A stretch of DNA of 23,780 bases, taken from the IMG/VR virus record IMGVR_UViG_3300015207_000030, positions 1 through 23,780 of that record. One strand, 5' to 3'. The notes beneath the pieces are model-generated. The model ran no database searches. It worked only from the letters and a program-made list of their open reading frames with translations, and was not told where the DNA came from. Within the stretch, counting starts at the first letter, position 1, and each line of letters starts with the position of its first letter. The position numbers were made by a program, and so were the translations under genes. Positions 3,043 through 19,014 of the stretch are shown in pieces. This DNA comes from a virus. Lineage: Duplodnaviria; Heunggongvirae; Uroviricota; Caudoviricetes.

Positions 3043-3414
3043 GTGCAGCAAAAACAGCATATTGAAGATACCGAGCAGATACATCTTTTTGATTGGGCGG
3101 CGATGCAGTCGGGGAAATATCCCGAATTGTCGCTGCTTTTTCATATCCCGAACGGCGGCAAGCGTGACGCACGTGAGGCGGCGCGGTTCAAAAGAATGGG
3201 CGTAAAGGCGGGCGTTCCCGATCTGTTTCTGCCCGTTCCGCGCGGGAAGTTTCACGGATTGTTTGTCGAACTGAAAGCGCCGAAAGGAAAACTTTCCGAT
3301 TATCAGAAGCAGTGGCTTCAGGAGCTTGCGGCGAGCGGCTACGCGGCTTGCGTTTGTTTCGGTTTCGACGAGGCTCGGCAGGATATTATGAAGTATCTTG
3401 AGGGGAAATTCTGA
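3043..3414 (+). CDS. VRR-NUC domain nuclease (PD-(D/E)xK superfamily)
   Basis: 123 aa from a GTG start with RBS GAGGTG; motifs HIPNGG.R, GVPDL and FVELK...GKLS..Q..W match the VRR-NUC signature as I recall it. Confidence 0.75.
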   Translation: MQQKQHIEDTEQIHLFDWAAMQSGKYPELSLLFHIPNGGKRDAREAARFKRMGVKAGVPDLFLPVPRGKFHGLFVELKAPKGKLSDYQKQWLQELAASGYAACVCFGFDEARQDIMKYLEGKF

Positions 3415-6151: not shown

Positions 6152-6262
6152 AAAGTTCTCCTTTCGATAGTCGGCATTACCGAGGGTTTAACAATTATAT
6201 TGTAATACGCAATTTGTTACGTGTCAAGTGGCTTTTCAAAAATTTTTAAAGAAGGTGAAAAA

Positions 6263-7777
6263 ATGAGCGGCTATTCAGATGCGGGCGCGAGTTATGACAA
6301 ACGCGCCTTAAAAGCCTTTATAGCGCGTTCTCTGTCGGCGATAGAGGATATCGACTATAACAACTTTACGCTGCGGCAGCGTGCGCGTATGCTGTATATG
6401 GCGTCGCCGATAGCGGCGGCAGCGATCAACACCAACCGCACAAAGATAGTCGGCAAAGGTCTGCGGCTGAAATGCAACATTGATTATGAGACGCTGGGGA
6501 TTTCCCCCGAGGCAGCCAAGAAATGGTGCAGACGCACCGAGGCGGCGTTCCGCTTTTGGTGCGAGGATCGCCGCAACTGCGACGCGCTCGGAATAAACAA
6601 TTTTTTCGAGCTTCAAAGTCTGGCGTGCAAATCATGGCTGATGAGCGGAGACGTTTTCGTGTTGCTGAAGCGCGAAAAGGCAACTCCGCTCAATCCGTAC
6701 ACACTGCGGCTGCATCTTGTCGAAGCCGATCGCGTATGCACTCCCGCGACCGCGGACGGCGGTTTGTGGAACGTTACCGAGGGCGAGTACAAGGGTCACA
6801 AGGTGCATGACGGCGTTGAGGTCGACGACAACGGTAAAGCGGTCGCGTACCACGTCTGCAACATCTATCCGGGGCAGATGAGCGCAAAAACGGAGAATTG
6901 GGTGCGTATAAAGGCAGTCGGCGAAAAAACGGGGCTGCCGAATATTCTGCACATAATGGACGCGGAGCGTCCCGATCAGTATCGGGGCGTTTCTTATTTG
7001 GCGTCGGTTATCGAGATGATCCTGCAGCTGCGCAGATACGTTGAGAGCGAACTGTTGGCGGCGCTTGTGCAGACATACCTTACTGCGTGGATAAAAGCCG
7101 CAGGCGACACGTCAGAAATGCCTATCATAGGGGATCAGGACGAGGAGGACGAAGAGGAACGATATGACAAAGACCCGCAGATGGCTCCCGGGAACGTTAT
7201 ACATTTAAAGCCCGGCGAGGATGTTATTTTCGGCAATCCGAATATCCCGACAGCGGGCTTTGAGACGTTCTCCAAGACGATCATAAAGCAGATAGGCGCT
7301 GGGCTTGAAATACCGTATGATGTGCTTGTCAAAGAGTTCAATTCCTCGTATTCCGCGTCAAAGGGCGCGCTCGAGGAGGCTTGGGAGGCTGTCAAAATGC
7401 GCCGCGCGTGGTTCGTGTCGGATTTTTGCCAGCCGATTTACGAGGTCTGGCTTTCGGAGGCGGTCGCGCTCGGCAAGATAAACGCTCCCGGTTTTTTCGA
7501 TGATCCGCTTATACGAGCGGCTTGGTGCGGTTCACGCTGGGACGGCCCCGCGCAAACTCACCTTGATCCGCTTAAAGAGGCAAAAGCAAACGCTATACTC
7601 GTTCAGAACGGCTGGAAAACCAACGAGCAGACCACACGCGAGTATTACGGCGAGAATTGGGAGGAAAATATGCAGCAGCTCGAACAGGAGAACGGGCTGA
7701 AAAACGCCGTTTGTCCGCCTGTAACAAATATGGATTTCAGCGATGAGGAGGAAGACGAAGATGCCAAAAACGATTGA
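6263..7777 (+). CDS. Portal protein, lambda gpB family
   Basis: Listed ORF starts at GTG 6221; I prefer ATG 6263 behind RBS GAAGGTGA. The segment FETFSKTIIKQIGAGLEIPYDVLVKEFNSSYSASKGALEEAWEAVKMRRAWFVSDFCQPIYEVWLSEAV parallels the lambda gpB C-terminal region as I recall it; acidic C-terminal tail. Confidence 0.8.
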   Translation: MSGYSDAGASYDKRALKAFIARSLSAIEDIDYNNFTLRQRARMLYMASPIAAAAINTNRTKIVGKGLRLKCNIDYETLGISPEAAKKWCRRTEAAFRFWCEDRRNCDALGINNFFELQSLACKSWLMSGDVFVLLKREKATPLNPYTLRLHLVEADRVCTPATADGGLWNVTEGEYKGHKVHDGVEVDDNGKAVAYHVCNIYPGQMSAKTENWVRIKAVGEKTGLPNILHIMDAERPDQYRGVSYLASVIEMILQLRRYVESELLAALVQTYLTAWIKAAGDTSEMPIIGDQDEEDEEERYDKDPQMAPGNVIHLKPGEDVIFGNPNIPTAGFETFSKTIIKQIGAGLEIPYDVLVKEFNSSYSASKGALEEAWEAVKMRRAWFVSDFCQPIYEVWLSEAVALGKINAPGFFDDPLIRAAWCGSRWDGPAQTHLDPLKEAKANAILVQNGWKTNEQTTREYYGENWEENMQQLEQENGLKNAVCPPVTNMDFSDEEEDEDAKND

Positions 7778-12785: not shown

Positions 12786-14213
12786 ATGCTCCAACATGGT
12801 ATAAACACATTTAAGGACGATACAGGCTCGGTGGCGGTGCAGGTCGCGGCGTGCGGTATCCCGTTCTTTATCGGCGCATGGCCGTGTCATACAGGCAAGG
12901 GCTTTGCGGGTAAGCCGCAGTACTGTACGAGCTTTGACGAGGCGGCGGAGCTGGGCGGGTATTCGTCCGAGTGGCGCTATGAAAACGGCTCTCCGAAATG
13001 GAATTTGTGTCAGGCGGCGTATGCGCACTTTAAGCTCGCGGGAATGAGCCCCGCGATTTTTTACAACATTTTTGACCCCAAAACGCACAGAAGGGCGGTT
13101 GAGGCGGGTAATTATCCCGTTGAAGAACATACCGTTAAGCTGCCGCTTGACGCGCTGCGGAACGGAAACCTTGTCGTTAAGTCGGCGGACGCGGAGGACG
13201 CGCTTGTCGAAAACGTTGACTACGAGGCGTATTATAACTCCGAAAATCTGTGCGTGGAGCTGCTTGAGGGCAGCGCGGCGTATAACGCGGATTCACTTAC
13301 GGTCGCGTATGACGCAGCCGACCCGTCGCTTATTACCGCCGAGGACGTTGAAATGGCTGTTGAAGCTGTTGAAATGTGCTACAGCGTTATCGGTATAGTT
13401 CCCGATCTGCTGTGCGCTCCCGGGTGGTCGGCGAACCCGACCGTCGCGGCGGTAATGGCGGCGAAAGCTCCGTCGATCAACGGGCTTTTCCGCGCAAAGG
13501 CGGTAGTGGATATTGACGCGGCAGTGGTTACCGAATACGGCGCGGTTCTGCAGTACAAGAACGACAACGGCTATACCTCCGAGGATATGGTCGTATGCTG
13601 GCCTATGGTAAAGAACGGCGATTATACGTTCGACCTCTCGGTCATTGCGTGCGGGCTTATGGCAAAGGTCGATTCGGGAAACGCGAACTGTCCGTATGAA
13701 TCGCCGTCCAATAAGGGCGTGCCTATTACAGGCGCTGTCAACGCAAGAGGTGAGGAGATAACCGTTTCGATCGCGCAGGCGGATATCCTTACCGTAACGG
13801 ACGGTATCGTTACCGTGCTCAACAACGGCGGCTGGAGCTTGTGGGGAAACTACCTCGGCTGCTACCCCAAAACGAGCGACGTCGCGAAAATGTTCATCTG
13901 CACCAACAGGACGCAGGACTGGATATGCAATACGTTCATCAAGACGTATTGGCAGTATCTGGATAAGCCGCTTACGCCGCCGCTTCGCGACGCGATAATC
14001 AACAGCTTCAACAGCTGGCTGAACGGATTGACAGCAGAGGGCAAGCTGTACGGCGGCGAACTGGAGTATATATCTGAGCTCAACCCCGTTACACAGCTTA
14101 CGAACGGTATGATAAGACTGGATACATTGGCGGCGTCGCCCATACCTGCGCAGCGCATAGATATGCACGTAGCGTACAGCGTGGATATGCTCGAATCCGC
14201 GTTCAGCTCATAA
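12786..14213 (+). CDS. Contractile tail sheath protein
   Basis: 475 aa behind RBS GAGGAGGAGGG; size and position directly upstream of tube, chaperone and tape measure genes as in PBSX/Mu/P2-type tail modules. Confidence 0.75.
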   Translation: MLQHGINTFKDDTGSVAVQVAACGIPFFIGAWPCHTGKGFAGKPQYCTSFDEAAELGGYSSEWRYENGSPKWNLCQAAYAHFKLAGMSPAIFYNIFDPKTHRRAVEAGNYPVEEHTVKLPLDALRNGNLVVKSADAEDALVENVDYEAYYNSENLCVELLEGSAAYNADSLTVAYDAADPSLITAEDVEMAVEAVEMCYSVIGIVPDLLCAPGWSANPTVAAVMAAKAPSINGLFRAKAVVDIDAAVVTEYGAVLQYKNDNGYTSEDMVVCWPMVKNGDYTFDLSVIACGLMAKVDSGNANCPYESPSNKGVPITGAVNARGEEITVSIAQADILTVTDGIVTVLNNGGWSLWGNYLGCYPKTSDVAKMFICTNRTQDWICNTFIKTYWQYLDKPLTPPLRDAIINSFNSWLNGLTAEGKLYGGELEYISELNPVTQLTNGMIRLDTLAASPIPAQRIDMHVAYSVDMLESAFSS

Positions 14214-14228
14214 AAAGGAGGGAAAGCT

Positions 14229-14756
14229 ATGAGCAGAGAAATAGAGGGTACTATTGCCGCGTATGTTTACGAGAACGGCGTAAACTTTCTGGGTCTGGCA
14301 AAGGTTGATATGCCGGACATTTCGTTCAAAACGTTCACATCGAGCGGACTGGGAATGTGCGGAGACGTGGAGCACGGAGCGCTGTGTCAATTCCAGCCCA
14401 TGAAAATGACCTTGCATTTCCGCGATACCAACACGGCATTTTACGCACTCAGCGATCAGAGGATACATCAGCTTACGCTGGAGGTCGCGAAACAGGTTCA
14501 CGAATACCAAGCGGGAGAAATTCCCGTCACAGGGGTCAAATATGTTGTGGATTTCGAGCCGCTTAAGACAACGGGCGGCAGCATAGAGCCCGCAACGCCG
14601 CAGAATGTTACTGCGGAGGGCTCCGTGTCTATGTTTAAGGAATTTATCAACGGAATTCTTGAACGTCATATTGACGTAACAAAATATATCTACATCGGTC
14701 ACGACGGCGTAGACCGCGCCGCGCCGATACGCAAGGCACTGAATATGGCGTACTGA
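14229..14756 (+). CDS. Tail tube protein
   Basis: 175 aa directly after the sheath gene with RBS AAAAGGAGGG; synteny-based. Confidence 0.65.
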   Translation: MSREIEGTIAAYVYENGVNFLGLAKVDMPDISFKTFTSSGLGMCGDVEHGALCQFQPMKMTLHFRDTNTAFYALSDQRIHQLTLEVAKQVHEYQAGEIPVTGVKYVVDFEPLKTTGGSIEPATPQNVTAEGSVSMFKEFINGILERHIDVTKYIYIGHDGVDRAAPIRKALNMAY

Positions 14757-14767
14757 TGAATAACCAA

Positions 14768-14800
14768 GTATCCCTCCGCGTTCGGAGGGATACGCTTTTT
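14768..14800 (+). terminator. Intrinsic terminator after the tail tube gene
   Basis: Stem GTATCCCTCCG (14768..14778) / CGGAGGGATAC (14783..14793), 4 nt loop, followed by GCTTTTT. Confidence 0.6.
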
Positions 14801-14819
14801 CGACGAAAGGAGAATTGAT

Positions 14820-15221
14820 ATGGATAATGAAGAGATTTTGGGCGGCGAGCTTACCGACGAGGAAAACAAGGCGGTCGACGACGCTGCAGGGAAGATCAGA
14901 AACGACGTAATGACGCCCGACGGCGTTTGGAAGTGCGAGCTGTCAAAGCCGATCACACACAACGGCATTGAATACAGCGAGCTTACGTTCAACTTCGGGA
15001 AGCTCACGGGCGCGGACGCTGTTAATATCGAGGACGAGCTTTCCGCAAAGGGAAAACCCGTGTTTATGAACGAGGCGGCTAACAGTTCGTATCTTATTTT
15101 AATGGCGGCGAGGGCGTGCGAGGAGCATATAAGCTCCGACGCGTTCAAGCGTATGAGCATTGTCGATTTTAACAGGATAAAGAACAAGGCGCGGCTTTTT
15201 TTATTGGGCGTTGCGGTGTAA
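14820..15221 (+). CDS. Tail assembly chaperone (XkdN-like), zero-frame product
   Basis: 133 aa between tube and tape measure; RBS AAAGGAG; ends with the slippery run described in the next feature. Confidence 0.6.
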   Translation: MDNEEILGGELTDEENKAVDDAAGKIRNDVMTPDGVWKCELSKPITHNGIEYSELTFNFGKLTGADAVNIEDELSAKGKPVFMNEAANSSYLILMAARACEEHISSDAFKRMSIVDFNRIKNKARLFLLGVAV

Positions 15222-15370
15222 GTCATTTGCGCCGCGACGTGCTGGCGCTGGCGCGAAACGGCTACGCGCCGATACAGTACTGGCTCGGTCTGCCGCTGCT
15301 TAATATACAGCGCTGGGCAAAAGAGCACAACAAACTGATAGACGAACTTAAAAGGAGTGAGGACGTATAG
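14820..15370 (+). CDS. Tail assembly chaperone, predicted -1 frameshift extended product
   Basis: Slippery heptamer T_TTT_TTA at 15197..15203 in the zero frame; the -1 frame is open from there to TAG at 15368..15370 (56 codons, my hand translation), ending 17 nt before the tape measure start. Confidence 0.45.
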
Positions 15371-15387
15371 CAAACAAGGAGTATCAG

Positions 15388-18300
15388 ATGCTGTTCAGGC
15401 TTGGCGCGCAGCTGGGCGAGAACTTCAACGGAACGTTCTCCTCCGCGCAGAGAGTTCTGCAGACAACGCAAAAGGAAATCCAAGCGCTCAACAAAACGCA
15501 GTCGGAGATCGGCGCTTATCAAAAGCAGCAGCAGAGCATTGAAAAGACGAACGAGAAACTCGAACTGTACAAAAAGCAGCTCGACAATGTTCAAAAGGAA
15601 ATGGCGGAGAGCGGCGAGCACAGTTCAGCGCTCGCGAACAGAGAACTGGAACTGAAAAAACGCATAGAGGATACCAAAGCTGCGTTATCCGATAAGAACC
15701 AAAAGCTGTCGCAGATGAGTGAGGAGCTTAGTAAAGCGGGCGTTGATGTCAATAATCTTACCTCGGAGACCCTGAAATGTCAAGGCGAGATCGCCAAATT
15801 GTCAAAGCAGGAAGAAATCGCGGCGGCAGAGGCGGCGCGGTTCGGTGACGAGGGCGCTACGGCGTTTGAGGCTGTCGGCTCCGCGCTTGTTTCGGCGGGC
15901 ATTGCGGCGGCACTCAATAAGATAGCGGACGAATACCGCGCGTGTGTTGAAGCGTCAATGGAATTCGGCTACACAATATCTACCGTTGAAGCACTTTCGG
16001 GTGCTTCGGTAACGGAAATGCAGACGCTCACCGCGACCGCGAAAGAGCTGGGCGCGACGACCGCGTTTACCGCAAATCAGTCCGCACAGGCCATGACATA
16101 CATGGGAATGGCAGGCTGGAACGCGGGGCAAATGGTGTCGGGAATGGACGGCGTTCTGAACCTCGCGGCGGCAAGCGGCGAGGGCTTGGCGAACGTCTCG
16201 GATATCGTTACCGACAATCTTACCGCGTTCGGTCTGAAAGCCTCGGATACCGCACACTTCGCGGACGTTCTCGCGGCGGCGGCTACAAATTCCAATACTT
16301 CTGTCGGAATCATGGGCGAAACGTTCAAGGGTTCGGCGTCTGTCGCGGGAGCGCTCGGCTATAGCATTGAAGATGTCGCGGTTATGACAGGTCTTATGGC
16401 AAACGCGGGTGTTAAGGGCTCAATCGCGAATACCGCACTGAAGAACACATTTAACGGACTGCTGAGCGGTGTTACACTTACGGGTACTGCGCTTGGCGAA
16501 GTTGAATTTACAGCAGTGAACGCGGACGGAACGATGAAGGGTTTAAGCGGCACCGTCGACGAACTGCGTGGGTACTTCGATCAAATGACCGAATCAGAAC
16601 GCGTAAATAACGCTATGGCTCTTGCGGGACAGCGCGGTTATAACGGCTTGCTTGCAATACTCAATGCCACCGATGAGGACTATCAAAGTTTGACCGACAG
16701 CATAAATAACTGTACGGGTTCTGCGCAGAAGATGGCAAATATCAAGCTGGATAATCTGCATGGCGATGTTACGCTGCTTGATTCCGCGACCGATGGTCTG
16801 AGAATGACTATCGGCGGTCTGTATGAGGACGAGCTGAGACAGGCAGCACAGATCGGTACAGAGATCATTACCAAGATCAACGAGTTCTGCGAGCAAAATC
16901 CCGTGGCGGTCAAGGCAATAATGGCAGGTGCTGCCGCGTTAGGCGGCTTGGCATTGGCTTATGGAACGGTAAATACTGTTAAAAAAGTGAAAAACGCGCT
17001 TGATACGCTTGGTATAACTCTGACAGCGGCACATACCGCAGGAACAACAAAAATGACTTTTGCTGAGAGTGCTCACGCTTTTGCAACAACAGTTGCCGCA
17101 AAAGCACAAGCGGGTTGGAACGCTGTGATGGCGGCCGCACCGTTAATGATATTTGTTGGAGCTGTTGTTGCTGCAACGGCTGGAATTGCAGCTTTAAGAG
17201 AAGCGTTCAAAGTTGAGACTATTGAAATGCAAACGCTCAACACTGCGACACAAGAACAGCGCGATAAGGTATCGCAGCTTTCCGAGGAATATGAAAAAGC
17301 TTGTGAGATTTACGGTGAAACGGACACCAGAACACGCGCGCTGAAATACGACCTCGACGAGGCTACGGCAGCTATTGACGATCAATCTTTTTCGGTAAAG
17401 GATCTGTACGCCGAAATAGATACGTTACACAGCTCGACGAGCGGCTTGCTTGAGGACTGCCGCAGCAGTACGGCAAGCATTGACGAGCAGTATGACAGTG
17501 CCATGATACTTTCGGCTAAGCTGCGCGAGTTAGCGTCGAGCTCGGACAGATCGGCAGAATCACAGGCAAAAATGGAGCCGATCGTGCGGCGGCTTAATGA
17601 AATGTATCCCGGGTTGGGGCTGAGTGTTGAAAATGCAGCCGACAAAATGGGCTTGCTGAACGGGCAGATCGAACAGGCAGCAAAGTCGCAGAGCTTACTA
17701 GCAAAATATAAGAGCGCCGATGATAATCTTCCGGAACTGTACGCAAAACAACTGCAGCTTCAGGAGGCTGTCGAAAAAGCGGAGATCGCACAAGTCAGAG
17801 CGGGAAAAGAATTCACCGACGCGGCGGGAGACAATTTCTTTACCGTCGCCGCCGGTATGATAACCGGCAGGGCGCAGGATACCGAAAAAGCCTATGATGA
17901 GGCGAGTGAAAAGGTGCGTACCGCACGGGGAGATCTGGCAGCCGTAGAGGCGCAGATACGCGAGTGTGAGGCAGCAATGGAAGAATACGGCGGCGTTGTT
18001 TCGGGAACTTCGGAGGAGACCGTTTCGGCGTTCGATGCGGTATCTATCGCCGTGAACGAAGTCACCGCTGAAACCGAGGAACTGCTGAAAGCCTACAACG
18101 ACGCGTATCAAGCGGCATACGACAGTGTTTCGGGGCAGTACGCGCTTTGGGACAAGGCTGCGGAGGTCTCGGCGGTGAGCGTCGGCACGATCAACGAAAA
18201 CCTCGAACAGCAAGCGGCTTATTGGGATAGCTACAACACCAATCTGAACTTGCTGCTCGGCAGAGCGGGCGATATAGACGGATTAAAAGACGTTCTCGCG

Positions 18301-19014
18301 GCGTTCGCGGATGGCAGCACGGACAGCGTGAACGCCGTCGCGGGTATGGCGTCCGCGTCCGACGAGGATCTGAAGCGTATGATTGAGAACTGGCAGATGG
18401 TTCAAGCGGAGCAAAACAAGACCGCCGAGGCGCTTGCCGATACAAAGGTCGACTTCAAGGAGCGGATGGACGGTATCGCGGACGATATGAACAACGTTAT
18501 CAAGGATATGAACTTAAGCGCCGAGGCAAAAACGGCGGCGGAGGAAACCATTAAGGCATACGCCGAGGCTATCGCGGCGGGCAAGGGCTCGGTCGCTGAA
18601 GCGGCGGATATCGTCGCGGCGGCGGTCGGGAACGCTCTCGGGATATCTCTCGCCGCAGATAACGCTGTGACCCCGGGCGGCGAATACGTCAGGGGATTTC
18701 ACAAGATAGACGCGTATGCCGACGGCACGGACTACGCAAAAAGCGGATACGCGATAGTCGGCGAGGAGGGTCCCGAGCTTGTTAAATTCGGCGGCGGTGA
18801 AAAGGTATTCCCAAACGATAAAACAATGGCTATTTTAGGCAATTCCGCGTCAAACACAGGCGGACAGACGGTAATAAATATCTCGCCGCAATTCACGATA
18901 AACGGCAGCGCCGACGCGAGTATGGTCGAGGAGGCTTCCGAGCGGCTGATTGAGCTTGTCATGGACGGACTGCGCGAGGCGGGTATCGACGCACGGAGAG
19001 GGGCGTATGTATGA
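15388..19014 (+). CDS. Tail tape measure protein
   Basis: 1208 aa; N-terminal coiled coil; central Gly/Ala-rich block (MTYMGMAGWNAGQMVSGMDGVLNLAAASGEGLANVSDIVTDNLTAFGL) typical of the tape-measure core; two hydrophobic segments; RBS AAGGAG. Confidence 0.85.
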   Translation: MLFRLGAQLGENFNGTFSSAQRVLQTTQKEIQALNKTQSEIGAYQKQQQSIEKTNEKLELYKKQLDNVQKEMAESGEHSSALANRELELKKRIEDTKAALSDKNQKLSQMSEELSKAGVDVNNLTSETLKCQGEIAKLSKQEEIAAAEAARFGDEGATAFEAVGSALVSAGIAAALNKIADEYRACVEASMEFGYTISTVEALSGASVTEMQTLTATAKELGATTAFTANQSAQAMTYMGMAGWNAGQMVSGMDGVLNLAAASGEGLANVSDIVTDNLTAFGLKASDTAHFADVLAAAATNSNTSVGIMGETFKGSASVAGALGYSIEDVAVMTGLMANAGVKGSIANTALKNTFNGLLSGVTLTGTALGEVEFTAVNADGTMKGLSGTVDELRGYFDQMTESERVNNAMALAGQRGYNGLLAILNATDEDYQSLTDSINNCTGSAQKMANIKLDNLHGDVTLLDSATDGLRMTIGGLYEDELRQAAQIGTEIITKINEFCEQNPVAVKAIMAGAAALGGLALAYGTVNTVKKVKNALDTLGITLTAAHTAGTTKMTFAESAHAFATTVAAKAQAGWNAVMAAAPLMIFVGAVVAATAGIAALREAFKVETIEMQTLNTATQEQRDKVSQLSEEYEKACEIYGETDTRTRALKYDLDEATAAIDDQSFSVKDLYAEIDTLHSSTSGLLEDCRSSTASIDEQYDSAMILSAKLRELASSSDRSAESQAKMEPIVRRLNEMYPGLGLSVENAADKMGLLNGQIEQAAKSQSLLAKYKSADDNLPELYAKQLQLQEAVEKAEIAQVRAGKEFTDAAGDNFFTVAAGMITGRAQDTEKAYDEASEKVRTARGDLAAVEAQIRECEAAMEEYGGVVSGTSEETVSAFDAVSIAVNEVTAETEELLKAYNDAYQAAYDSVSGQYALWDKAAEVSAVSVGTINENLEQQAAYWDSYNTNLNLLLGRAGDIDGLKDVLAAFADGSTDSVNAVAGMASASDEDLKRMIENWQMVQAEQNKTAEALADTKVDFKERMDGIADDMNNVIKDMNLSAEAKTAAEETIKAYAEAIAAGKGSVAEAADIVAAAVGNALGISLAADNAVTPGGEYVRGFHKIDAYADGTDYAKSGYAIVGEEGPELVKFGGGEKVFPNDKTMAILGNSASNTGGQTVINISPQFTINGSADASMVEEASERLIELVMDGLREAGIDARRGAYV

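Follow-up and report, generated by a model that had tools for sequence, protein, structure and literature searches.

The DNA analyzed here (a stretch of 23,780 nt, hereafter the window) is best read as that of a contractile-tailed phage or prophage of the Oscillospiraceae whose tail assembly chaperone gene carries a programmed −1 ribosomal frameshift, a reading to which we give, on the basis of comparative sequence analysis, a probability of about 0.9. Most ribosomes would read 14820..15221 and release a chaperone of 133 aa, and a minority would slip back one base on U_UUU_UUA, with the tRNA-Phe on UUU in the P site and the tRNA-Leu on UUA in the A site. The slipped ribosomes would then read 55 more codons in the −1 frame, as far as the TAG at 15368..15370, and would produce a fusion of 183 aa. 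A hairpin at 15208..15240 is probably what makes the ribosome pause at the heptamer. On the model of G/GT of lambda and E/E+E′ of P2, the tape measure protein would be coated by the N-terminal part common to both forms, recruitment of the tube protein would fall to the −1 domain, and the efficiency of the slip would set the ratio between the short and the long form. We infer these events, that is, the slipping itself, its stimulation by the hairpin, the binding partners and the ratio of the forms, from an anatomy that can be read directly in the window, from its conservation in relatives, and from the selection found on both the slippery nucleotides and the −1 peptide.

The features referred to throughout are as follows:

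12786..14213, + strand: tail sheath protein, 475 aa (phrog_23 tail sheath, E 8e-62)
14229..14756, + strand: tail tube protein, 175 aa (PF04985 Phage_tube, E 6e-22)
14820..15221, + strand: tail assembly chaperone, short product in the 0 frame (gpE / gpG equivalent), 133 aa
15197..15203, + strand: slippery heptamer T_TTT_TTA in X_XXY_YYZ phase, read from the sequence
15203..15370, + strand: −1 frame extension IGRCGVSHLRRDVLALARNGYAPIQYWLGLPLLNIQRWAKEHNKLIDELKRSEDV plus TAG, 55 sense codons, re-read from the A at 15203
14820..15203 joined to 15203..15370, + strand: conceptual fusion, 183 aa, with its junction at residues 128/129
15208..15240, + strand: predicted RNA hairpin with a 14-bp stem, candidate frameshift stimulator (RNA folding)
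15388..19014, + strand: tape measure protein, 1208 aa (PF10145, E 5e-41; phrog_1533, E 1e-107)

The proposed slip site and its gene neighborhood

The chaperone ORF ends, in the 0 frame, with the codons AAG GCG CGG CTT TTT TTA TTG GGC GTT GCG GTG TAA, in which the T residues of the heptamer form part of a T7 run at 15196..15202. The spacing between the heptamer and the TAA (15219..15221) is 15 nt, or 18 nt if the stop is counted to the end of the ORF, which is the distance given in the first-pass annotation, whose coordinates proved right base for base. The same annotation had described a −1 frame open for 56 codons up to near the tape measure gene, and this stands, as 55 sense codons plus the TAG; the frame is open from 15173 to 15370, and 17 nt separate the TAG from the tape measure ATG at 15388, ahead of which there is an AAGGAG ribosome binding site at 15376..15381. 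The short form and the fusion have their first 128 residues in common. A +1 frameshift was also considered and ruled out, as the +1 frame shuts at 15303, that is, after 27 codons here, and after 1–6 codons in many relatives.

The window as a whole is a phage morphogenesis module, with genes for the small and large terminase, the portal, the protease, the major head protein and the neck, and with a tail region in the order sheath, tube, chaperone and tape measure, then the baseplate hub and wedge proteins. The sheath gene shows that the tail is contractile; the tube protein is presumed, by analogy, to be the partner of the −1 domain, and the tape measure protein, on the same grounds, to be the client of the chaperone. 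With regard to the start of the latter gene, in two close relatives (L087 and L090) it begins with ATG GCA AAC AAG GAA TAT CAG ATG (MANKEYQM...), and in the window the first of those ATGs is ATA (15367..15369), overlapping the TAG of the extension; the start in the window is probably the second ATG, at 15388, behind AAGGAG. Farther downstream, the gpD-like baseplate hub or late control protein (PF05954, 19199..21022) contains an SH3_3 domain and a C-terminal CW_7 repeat, a cell-wall-binding repeat that is also found in endolysin PHROGs, which suggests a peptidoglycan-binding tail protein.

As for the host, a search of contigs from metagenome-assembled genomes (MAGs) with the single chaperone protein as the query gave four MAG loci; an identical chaperone gene is found in an uncultured Oscillospiraceae MAG, and relatives of 56–86% in Ruminococcus and Clostridia MAGs.

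The site by itself is just moderately improbable within the window. Heptamers of the X_XXY_YYZ type occur at 44 of the 6843 in-frame positions of its long ORFs, TTTTTTD is observed 18 times against 20.5 expected, and at 13% of in-gene positions the −1 frame continues without a stop for 55 codons or more. Its significance derives from its location, in the last codons of a gene lying between those of the tube and the tape measure, and from its conservation in relatives. There is a second in-phase heptamer in the window, T_TTT_TTC at 6601..6607, inside the portal gene (6221..7777) and with a −1 frame open for 67 codons; being far from the end of its gene and without supporting context, it is probably due to chance.

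Conservation of the two frames and selection on them

When the fusion was compared by tblastn with GenBank phages, it matched FP_Taranis and Pioen, both phages of Faecalibacterium, Saumur (Clostridium), KLER1-1 (Pararheinheimera) and Lily (Paenibacillus), and each match was split into two pieces, corresponding to the two frames; at the nucleotide level, 12786..15370 had no match in the phage collection. Four of these cultured phages were inspected in detail (FP_Taranis, Saumur, KLER1-1 and Lily; 30–46% identity). All four have, in this order, the sheath, the tube, the chaperone, a small “hypothetical protein” and the tape measure, all four have an in-phase T_TTT_TTG 6–15 nt upstream of the chaperone stop, and in all four the −1 frame extends 52–60 codons past that stop and ends 0–15 nt before the tape measure gene.

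The comparison was widened with 80 IMG/VR loci and close relatives from Logan assemblies, which yielded 44 distinct sequences spanning 27–86% identity. An in-phase T_TTT_TTN occupies the homologous column in 42 of them, and the −1 frame is open for 42–60 codons beyond the chaperone stop in every one (44/44), the corresponding range for the +1 frame being 1 to 78 codons. The proposal made from the sequence at the outset, that the site matches the conserved chaperone frameshift of tailed phages, is thereby upheld, in that the heptamer, its phase, the −1 frame and the −1 peptide are all kept in relatives.

A subgroup of relatives (L039, 610..789; L042, 2830..3009; and also P0031, P0032 and P0037) is without the T6 heptamer. 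In this subgroup the 0 frame reads CGG TCT TTT ATG, and the homologous −1 extension, ELRRTCLILSRAGYAPVDYWLNIPLVELQRWVTAHNALMKE, is retained. Just a P-site slip on U_UUU seems to be available there, and it may be by this P-site-only route that these relatives reach the −1 frame.

The nucleotides of the slip site were examined by counting silent sites in 46 distinct chaperone genes. The codon preceding the Phe ends in T in all 46, even though it encodes R, S, A, N, L or D (CGT, AGT, TCT, GCT, AAT, CTT and GAT are used), against a background of 0.22 for T in the third position; the Phe itself is TTT in 46 of 46, the count elsewhere in those genes being 127 TTT vs 77 TTC; and the Phe is followed by TTA, TTG or TTC without exception, leucine codons of the CTN type being absent from this position. 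In other words, the heptamer has six fixed T and a variable last base (A, G or C), a pattern that a slippery site would produce and that constraint on the protein alone would not. As read from these genes, the conservation of silent sites shows selection on the nucleotides themselves.

A fixed run of T could also be a substrate for the polymerase, and homopolymer runs of about the length found in the window can support low-level polymerase slippage in bacteria. In this alternative explanation, the polymerase would add one U at the T7 run and the ribosomes would remain unshifted, so that in a fraction of the mRNAs the fusion would be a single frame, longer by one Phe, an outcome almost the same at the protein level. 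The seven consecutive T of the window are in its favor; most of the relatives, however, have just six, in contexts such as ATTTTTTG and GTTTTTTA, and six T are short for efficient polymerase slippage. In addition, the hairpin of the close clade lies directly downstream, in the position expected of a ribosomal stimulator, and the homologous site of P2 is recorded as a translational frameshift. We therefore regard slippage during transcription as improbable, although it is the best placed of the alternatives to a ribosomal slip.

The −1 peptide is also conserved. It aligns easily among relatives and keeps the motif LRRxxLxLAxxxxTPVxFWLxLPLxxLxxWIxxxN. In six members of the clade, downstream of the overlap, the substitutions at positions 1:2:3 of the −1-frame codons are 189:108:249, and amino acid identity averages 0.62 in the −1 frame vs 0.46 in the other two. 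The first ATG, GTG or TTG of the −1 frame falls, in most relatives, within or after the conserved (W)LRR / GDGGxWLRRQ block, and the small ORF annotated in FP_Taranis begins 20 codons into the extension. Since the start codons are mostly within or past conserved residues, independent initiation cannot explain those residues. The downstream frame is coding and yet has no conserved initiation site, and two overlapping frames lie between the tube and tape measure genes, both of which are marks of membership of the lambda G/GT type.

The extension had initially been described as having no start codon of its own, and in this respect the description needs correction, as the TTG at 15227 gives a 47-aa ORF (15227..15370). 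It is from this ORF that a reading as two independent genes can be constructed, in which a 47-aa protein would be initiated at the TTG and the heptamer would be incidental: the ORF coincides with a JGI gene call (P0043, 100% identical), there is a weak GGTG 8 nt upstream of the TTG, and equivalent small ORFs are annotated as hypothetical proteins in the GenBank records of Taranis, Saumur, KLER1-1 and Lily. Nevertheless, close relatives have CTG or TTA in place of the TTG, which in the window is part of the 3′ arm of the hairpin; separate initiation would leave the conserved (W)LRR / GDGGxWLRRQ residues untranslated in most relatives; and the silent-site selection for T6 in a fixed phase would be left without explanation. 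The members of phrog_3140, moreover, cover the chaperone and the extension as one protein. Taken together, these points make two separate genes very unlikely.

The protein databases were also searched with the 55-aa extension. A word-indexed search returned the window's own 47-aa ORF call alone, and an exhaustive search of 1.84 billion representative proteins returned that call and 12 short ORF calls (36–59 aa), the other matches being an unrelated repeat protein (P0046) and a protein of 174 aa (P0057). The middle of the latter (PPYRRRRPARPAHLRVQPRQRQGPLFF) resembles an out-of-frame translation of the chaperone, and P0057 probably arose from an assembly indel instead of being a natural fusion. 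That no natural in-frame fusion is seen among these sequences would fit a requirement for both products.

Least probable of all, to the point of being nearly negligible, is that a T was miscounted in the error-prone homopolymer run during sequencing or assembly and that the true gene is one continuous 183-aa ORF, as P0057 would suggest by reading the chaperone and the extension in one frame, given that an identical 133-aa product is found on at least 21 independent contigs from different samples, that four finished phage genomes and about 40 distinct metagenomic loci show the same two-frame layout, that P0057 has a middle segment out of frame, which makes it an indel product in its own right instead of a clean fusion, and that no clean in-frame fusion appears among the 1.84 billion representative proteins.

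The candidate stimulatory hairpin

The check for a downstream structure that the first-pass annotation had recommended reveals a predicted 14-bp hairpin (15208..15240) that is kept in the close clade. Its 5′ arm (15208..15221) ends in the 0-frame TAA, its loop occupies 15222..15226 and its 3′ arm 15227..15240. The stem begins 4 nt past the heptamer, at the short end of the spacing, as the usual spacer in −1 frameshifting is 5–9 nt. The 55 nt after the heptamer fold with −27.8 kcal/mol (z −3.5), and an 87-nt segment with −42.5 (z −2.5).

The nine distinct members of the close clade, which reaches down to a protein identity of 56%, all have the stem (9/9), and 94% of its cells are paired vs 25–47% in controls in which the partner was slid. 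The arms are conserved and the loop is variable, and the two Arg codons of the 3′ arm are always CGC CGC within this clade. Eight of the 14 stem pairs never vary, and there is a compensatory double change at one pair only; the 5′ arm is dual-coded, so that its conservation need not reflect RNA structure. On this evidence the hairpin is likely to be a stimulator of the frameshift.

Distant relatives do not conserve this particular hairpin and have others or none; Taranis, Saumur, Lily and KLER1-1 are without that of the window clade. In several distant relatives (L036, L047, L051, L066, L081 and L082) another stem recurs, ~7–45 nt past the heptamers, in which UCGGAG pairs with CUCCG(A/G) ~25 nt downstream, overlapping the conserved WLR codons; this stem may act as another stimulator or may simply result from coding. 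Upstream of the heptamer, no Shine-Dalgarno-like stimulator conserved in relatives was found by eye, the AAGG at 15185..15188 not being kept. Rfam has no family at gathering score in the window, and between 15100 and 15450 there is a single match at chance level (RT-15, E 0.78).

Family membership, known systems and annotation

The chaperone belongs, by its score, to PF10109 Phage_TAC_7 (29 bits vs a gathering cut-off of 25, E 1.1e-6), and the match covers residues 39–128, ending exactly at the slip site. The profile phrog_3140, “tail assembly chaperone”, spans the junction of the fusion (residues 35–163 of 183, E 6.1e-21). An AlphaFold model of the 133-aa short form (pLDDT 82) matches FS-gp41 of Mu and other tape measure chaperones in BFVD, and searches of the PDB, by sequence and by the fold of the short form, gave no meaningful match. 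By these tests the N-terminal domain of the chaperone belongs to the gpE/gp41 family.

The extension is a different matter. Neither that of the window nor those of two relatives match PF06528 Phage_P2_GpE in Pfam at E ≤ 10, whereas the P2 extension itself does so with 78.7 bits (2e-22). The alignment with E+E′ of P2 by hhalign is collinear, though weak and not significant (E 0.086), and NCBIfam has no model for either the chaperone or the extension. The extension would work like E′ and can be counted, at most, as a putative relative of the E′ family.

The closest parallel among the well-known systems is the FETUD tail operon of P2, in the record of which E (91 aa) and E+E′ are linked by an annotated −1 frameshift. 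The two share the contractile-tail order of sheath, tube, chaperone and tape measure, a chaperone in PF10109, a family named for E/41/14, and a slip site formed by T6 plus a variable base, which in P2 is T_TTT_TTG, 18 nt before the stop, and in the window T_TTT_TTA, 15 nt before it. The length of the −1 extension is also similar, 57 aa in P2 and 55 in the window, and in both the extension ends at the start of the tape measure gene, the P2 extension overlapping gene T. In contrast, the chaperone has 91 aa in P2 and, in the window, 133 aa with an extra acidic N-terminal helix; only the P2 extension matches PF06528; the host of the window is a Gram-positive member of the Clostridia; and its close clade has a strong hairpin in which the stop codon is embedded. 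With gp41 / FS-gp41 of Mu the chaperone shares the Pfam family name (E, 41 or 14) and, in the BFVD model of FS-gp41 (P0DJY4), a predicted fold (E 2e-3, probability 1.00), although with a sequence identity of 18% and a TM-score of ~0.4–0.5.

The phage lambda provides the reference for the functional analogy. In lambda, G attaches to the tape measure and the T domain to the tail tube subunit, the G/GT ratio is ~30:1, and the frameshift mechanism of the chaperone is widely conserved (PMC5009743). The studies of G/GT that are brought together in that review are those of Levin (1993) and of Xu, Hendrix and Duda (2004, 2013, 2014), and for P2-like phages it cites a frameshift efficiency 2–3-fold higher (Christie et al., 2002, cited in PMC5009743). 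The window shares with lambda the G/GT-type layout of a −1 frameshift between the tube and tape measure genes and differs from it in having a contractile tail, that of lambda being non-contractile. The slippery sequence of lambda is G_GGA_AAG and not a run of T. No similarity to the lambda chaperone was detected, and a Pfam search with the chaperone of the window matched PF10109 only.

A broader interpretation can be put together from these elements, which as a whole we hold tentatively and consider rather less probable than not: the extension would represent an uncatalogued tube-recruiting family apart from E′ of P2, the slip would be driven by the hairpin, and the L039/L042 subgroup would use a slip at the P site only. 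In this combination, the family defined by the motif described above may be widespread in myophages of gut Firmicutes, and the hairpin may be a clade-specific 14-bp stem formed around the 0-frame stop, with just 4 nt between it and the heptamer.

The nearest relatives among cultured phages (FP_Taranis gp55/gp56, Saumur, Lily and KLER1-1) are homologous in both parts and share the heptamer column, the motif of the extension and the gene order, and they differ in that their records give two separate genes and no frameshift. Small ORFs of the −1 frame are annotated at 3324..3452 of L001, 3411..3569 of L002, 3303..3428 of L003 and 3309..3431 of L004, and no join or frameshift is recorded for Taranis, Saumur, KLER1-1 and Lily in GenBank, or for the JGI call P0043; a literature search found no described frameshift in FP_Taranis. 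Between the chaperone and the tape measure, the gene calls of all the close relatives have an empty interval of ~150 nt. The presentation of the 3′ part, in the −1 frame, as a separate hypothetical protein is a systematic mis-annotation of the clade.

In summary, the evidence supports a site that is real and ordinary, an unannotated example, from an uncultured gut myophage of Oscillospiraceae, of a long-known kind of recoding, and its main value is in annotation, the current view of tail assembly or of recoding remaining unchanged. The 183-aa product is missing from the JGI calls, from the Logan/ENA calls and from the four GenBank phage records, which show in its place either a gap or a spurious hypothetical protein of 40–60 aa. 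The roughly 40 natural variants of the U6N slippery site, with or without a downstream hairpin, could be used for a study of frameshift efficiency in Gram-positive bacteria, and recognition of the site leads to a correct tail module for the myophages of Oscillospiraceae, Ruminococcus and Faecalibacterium.
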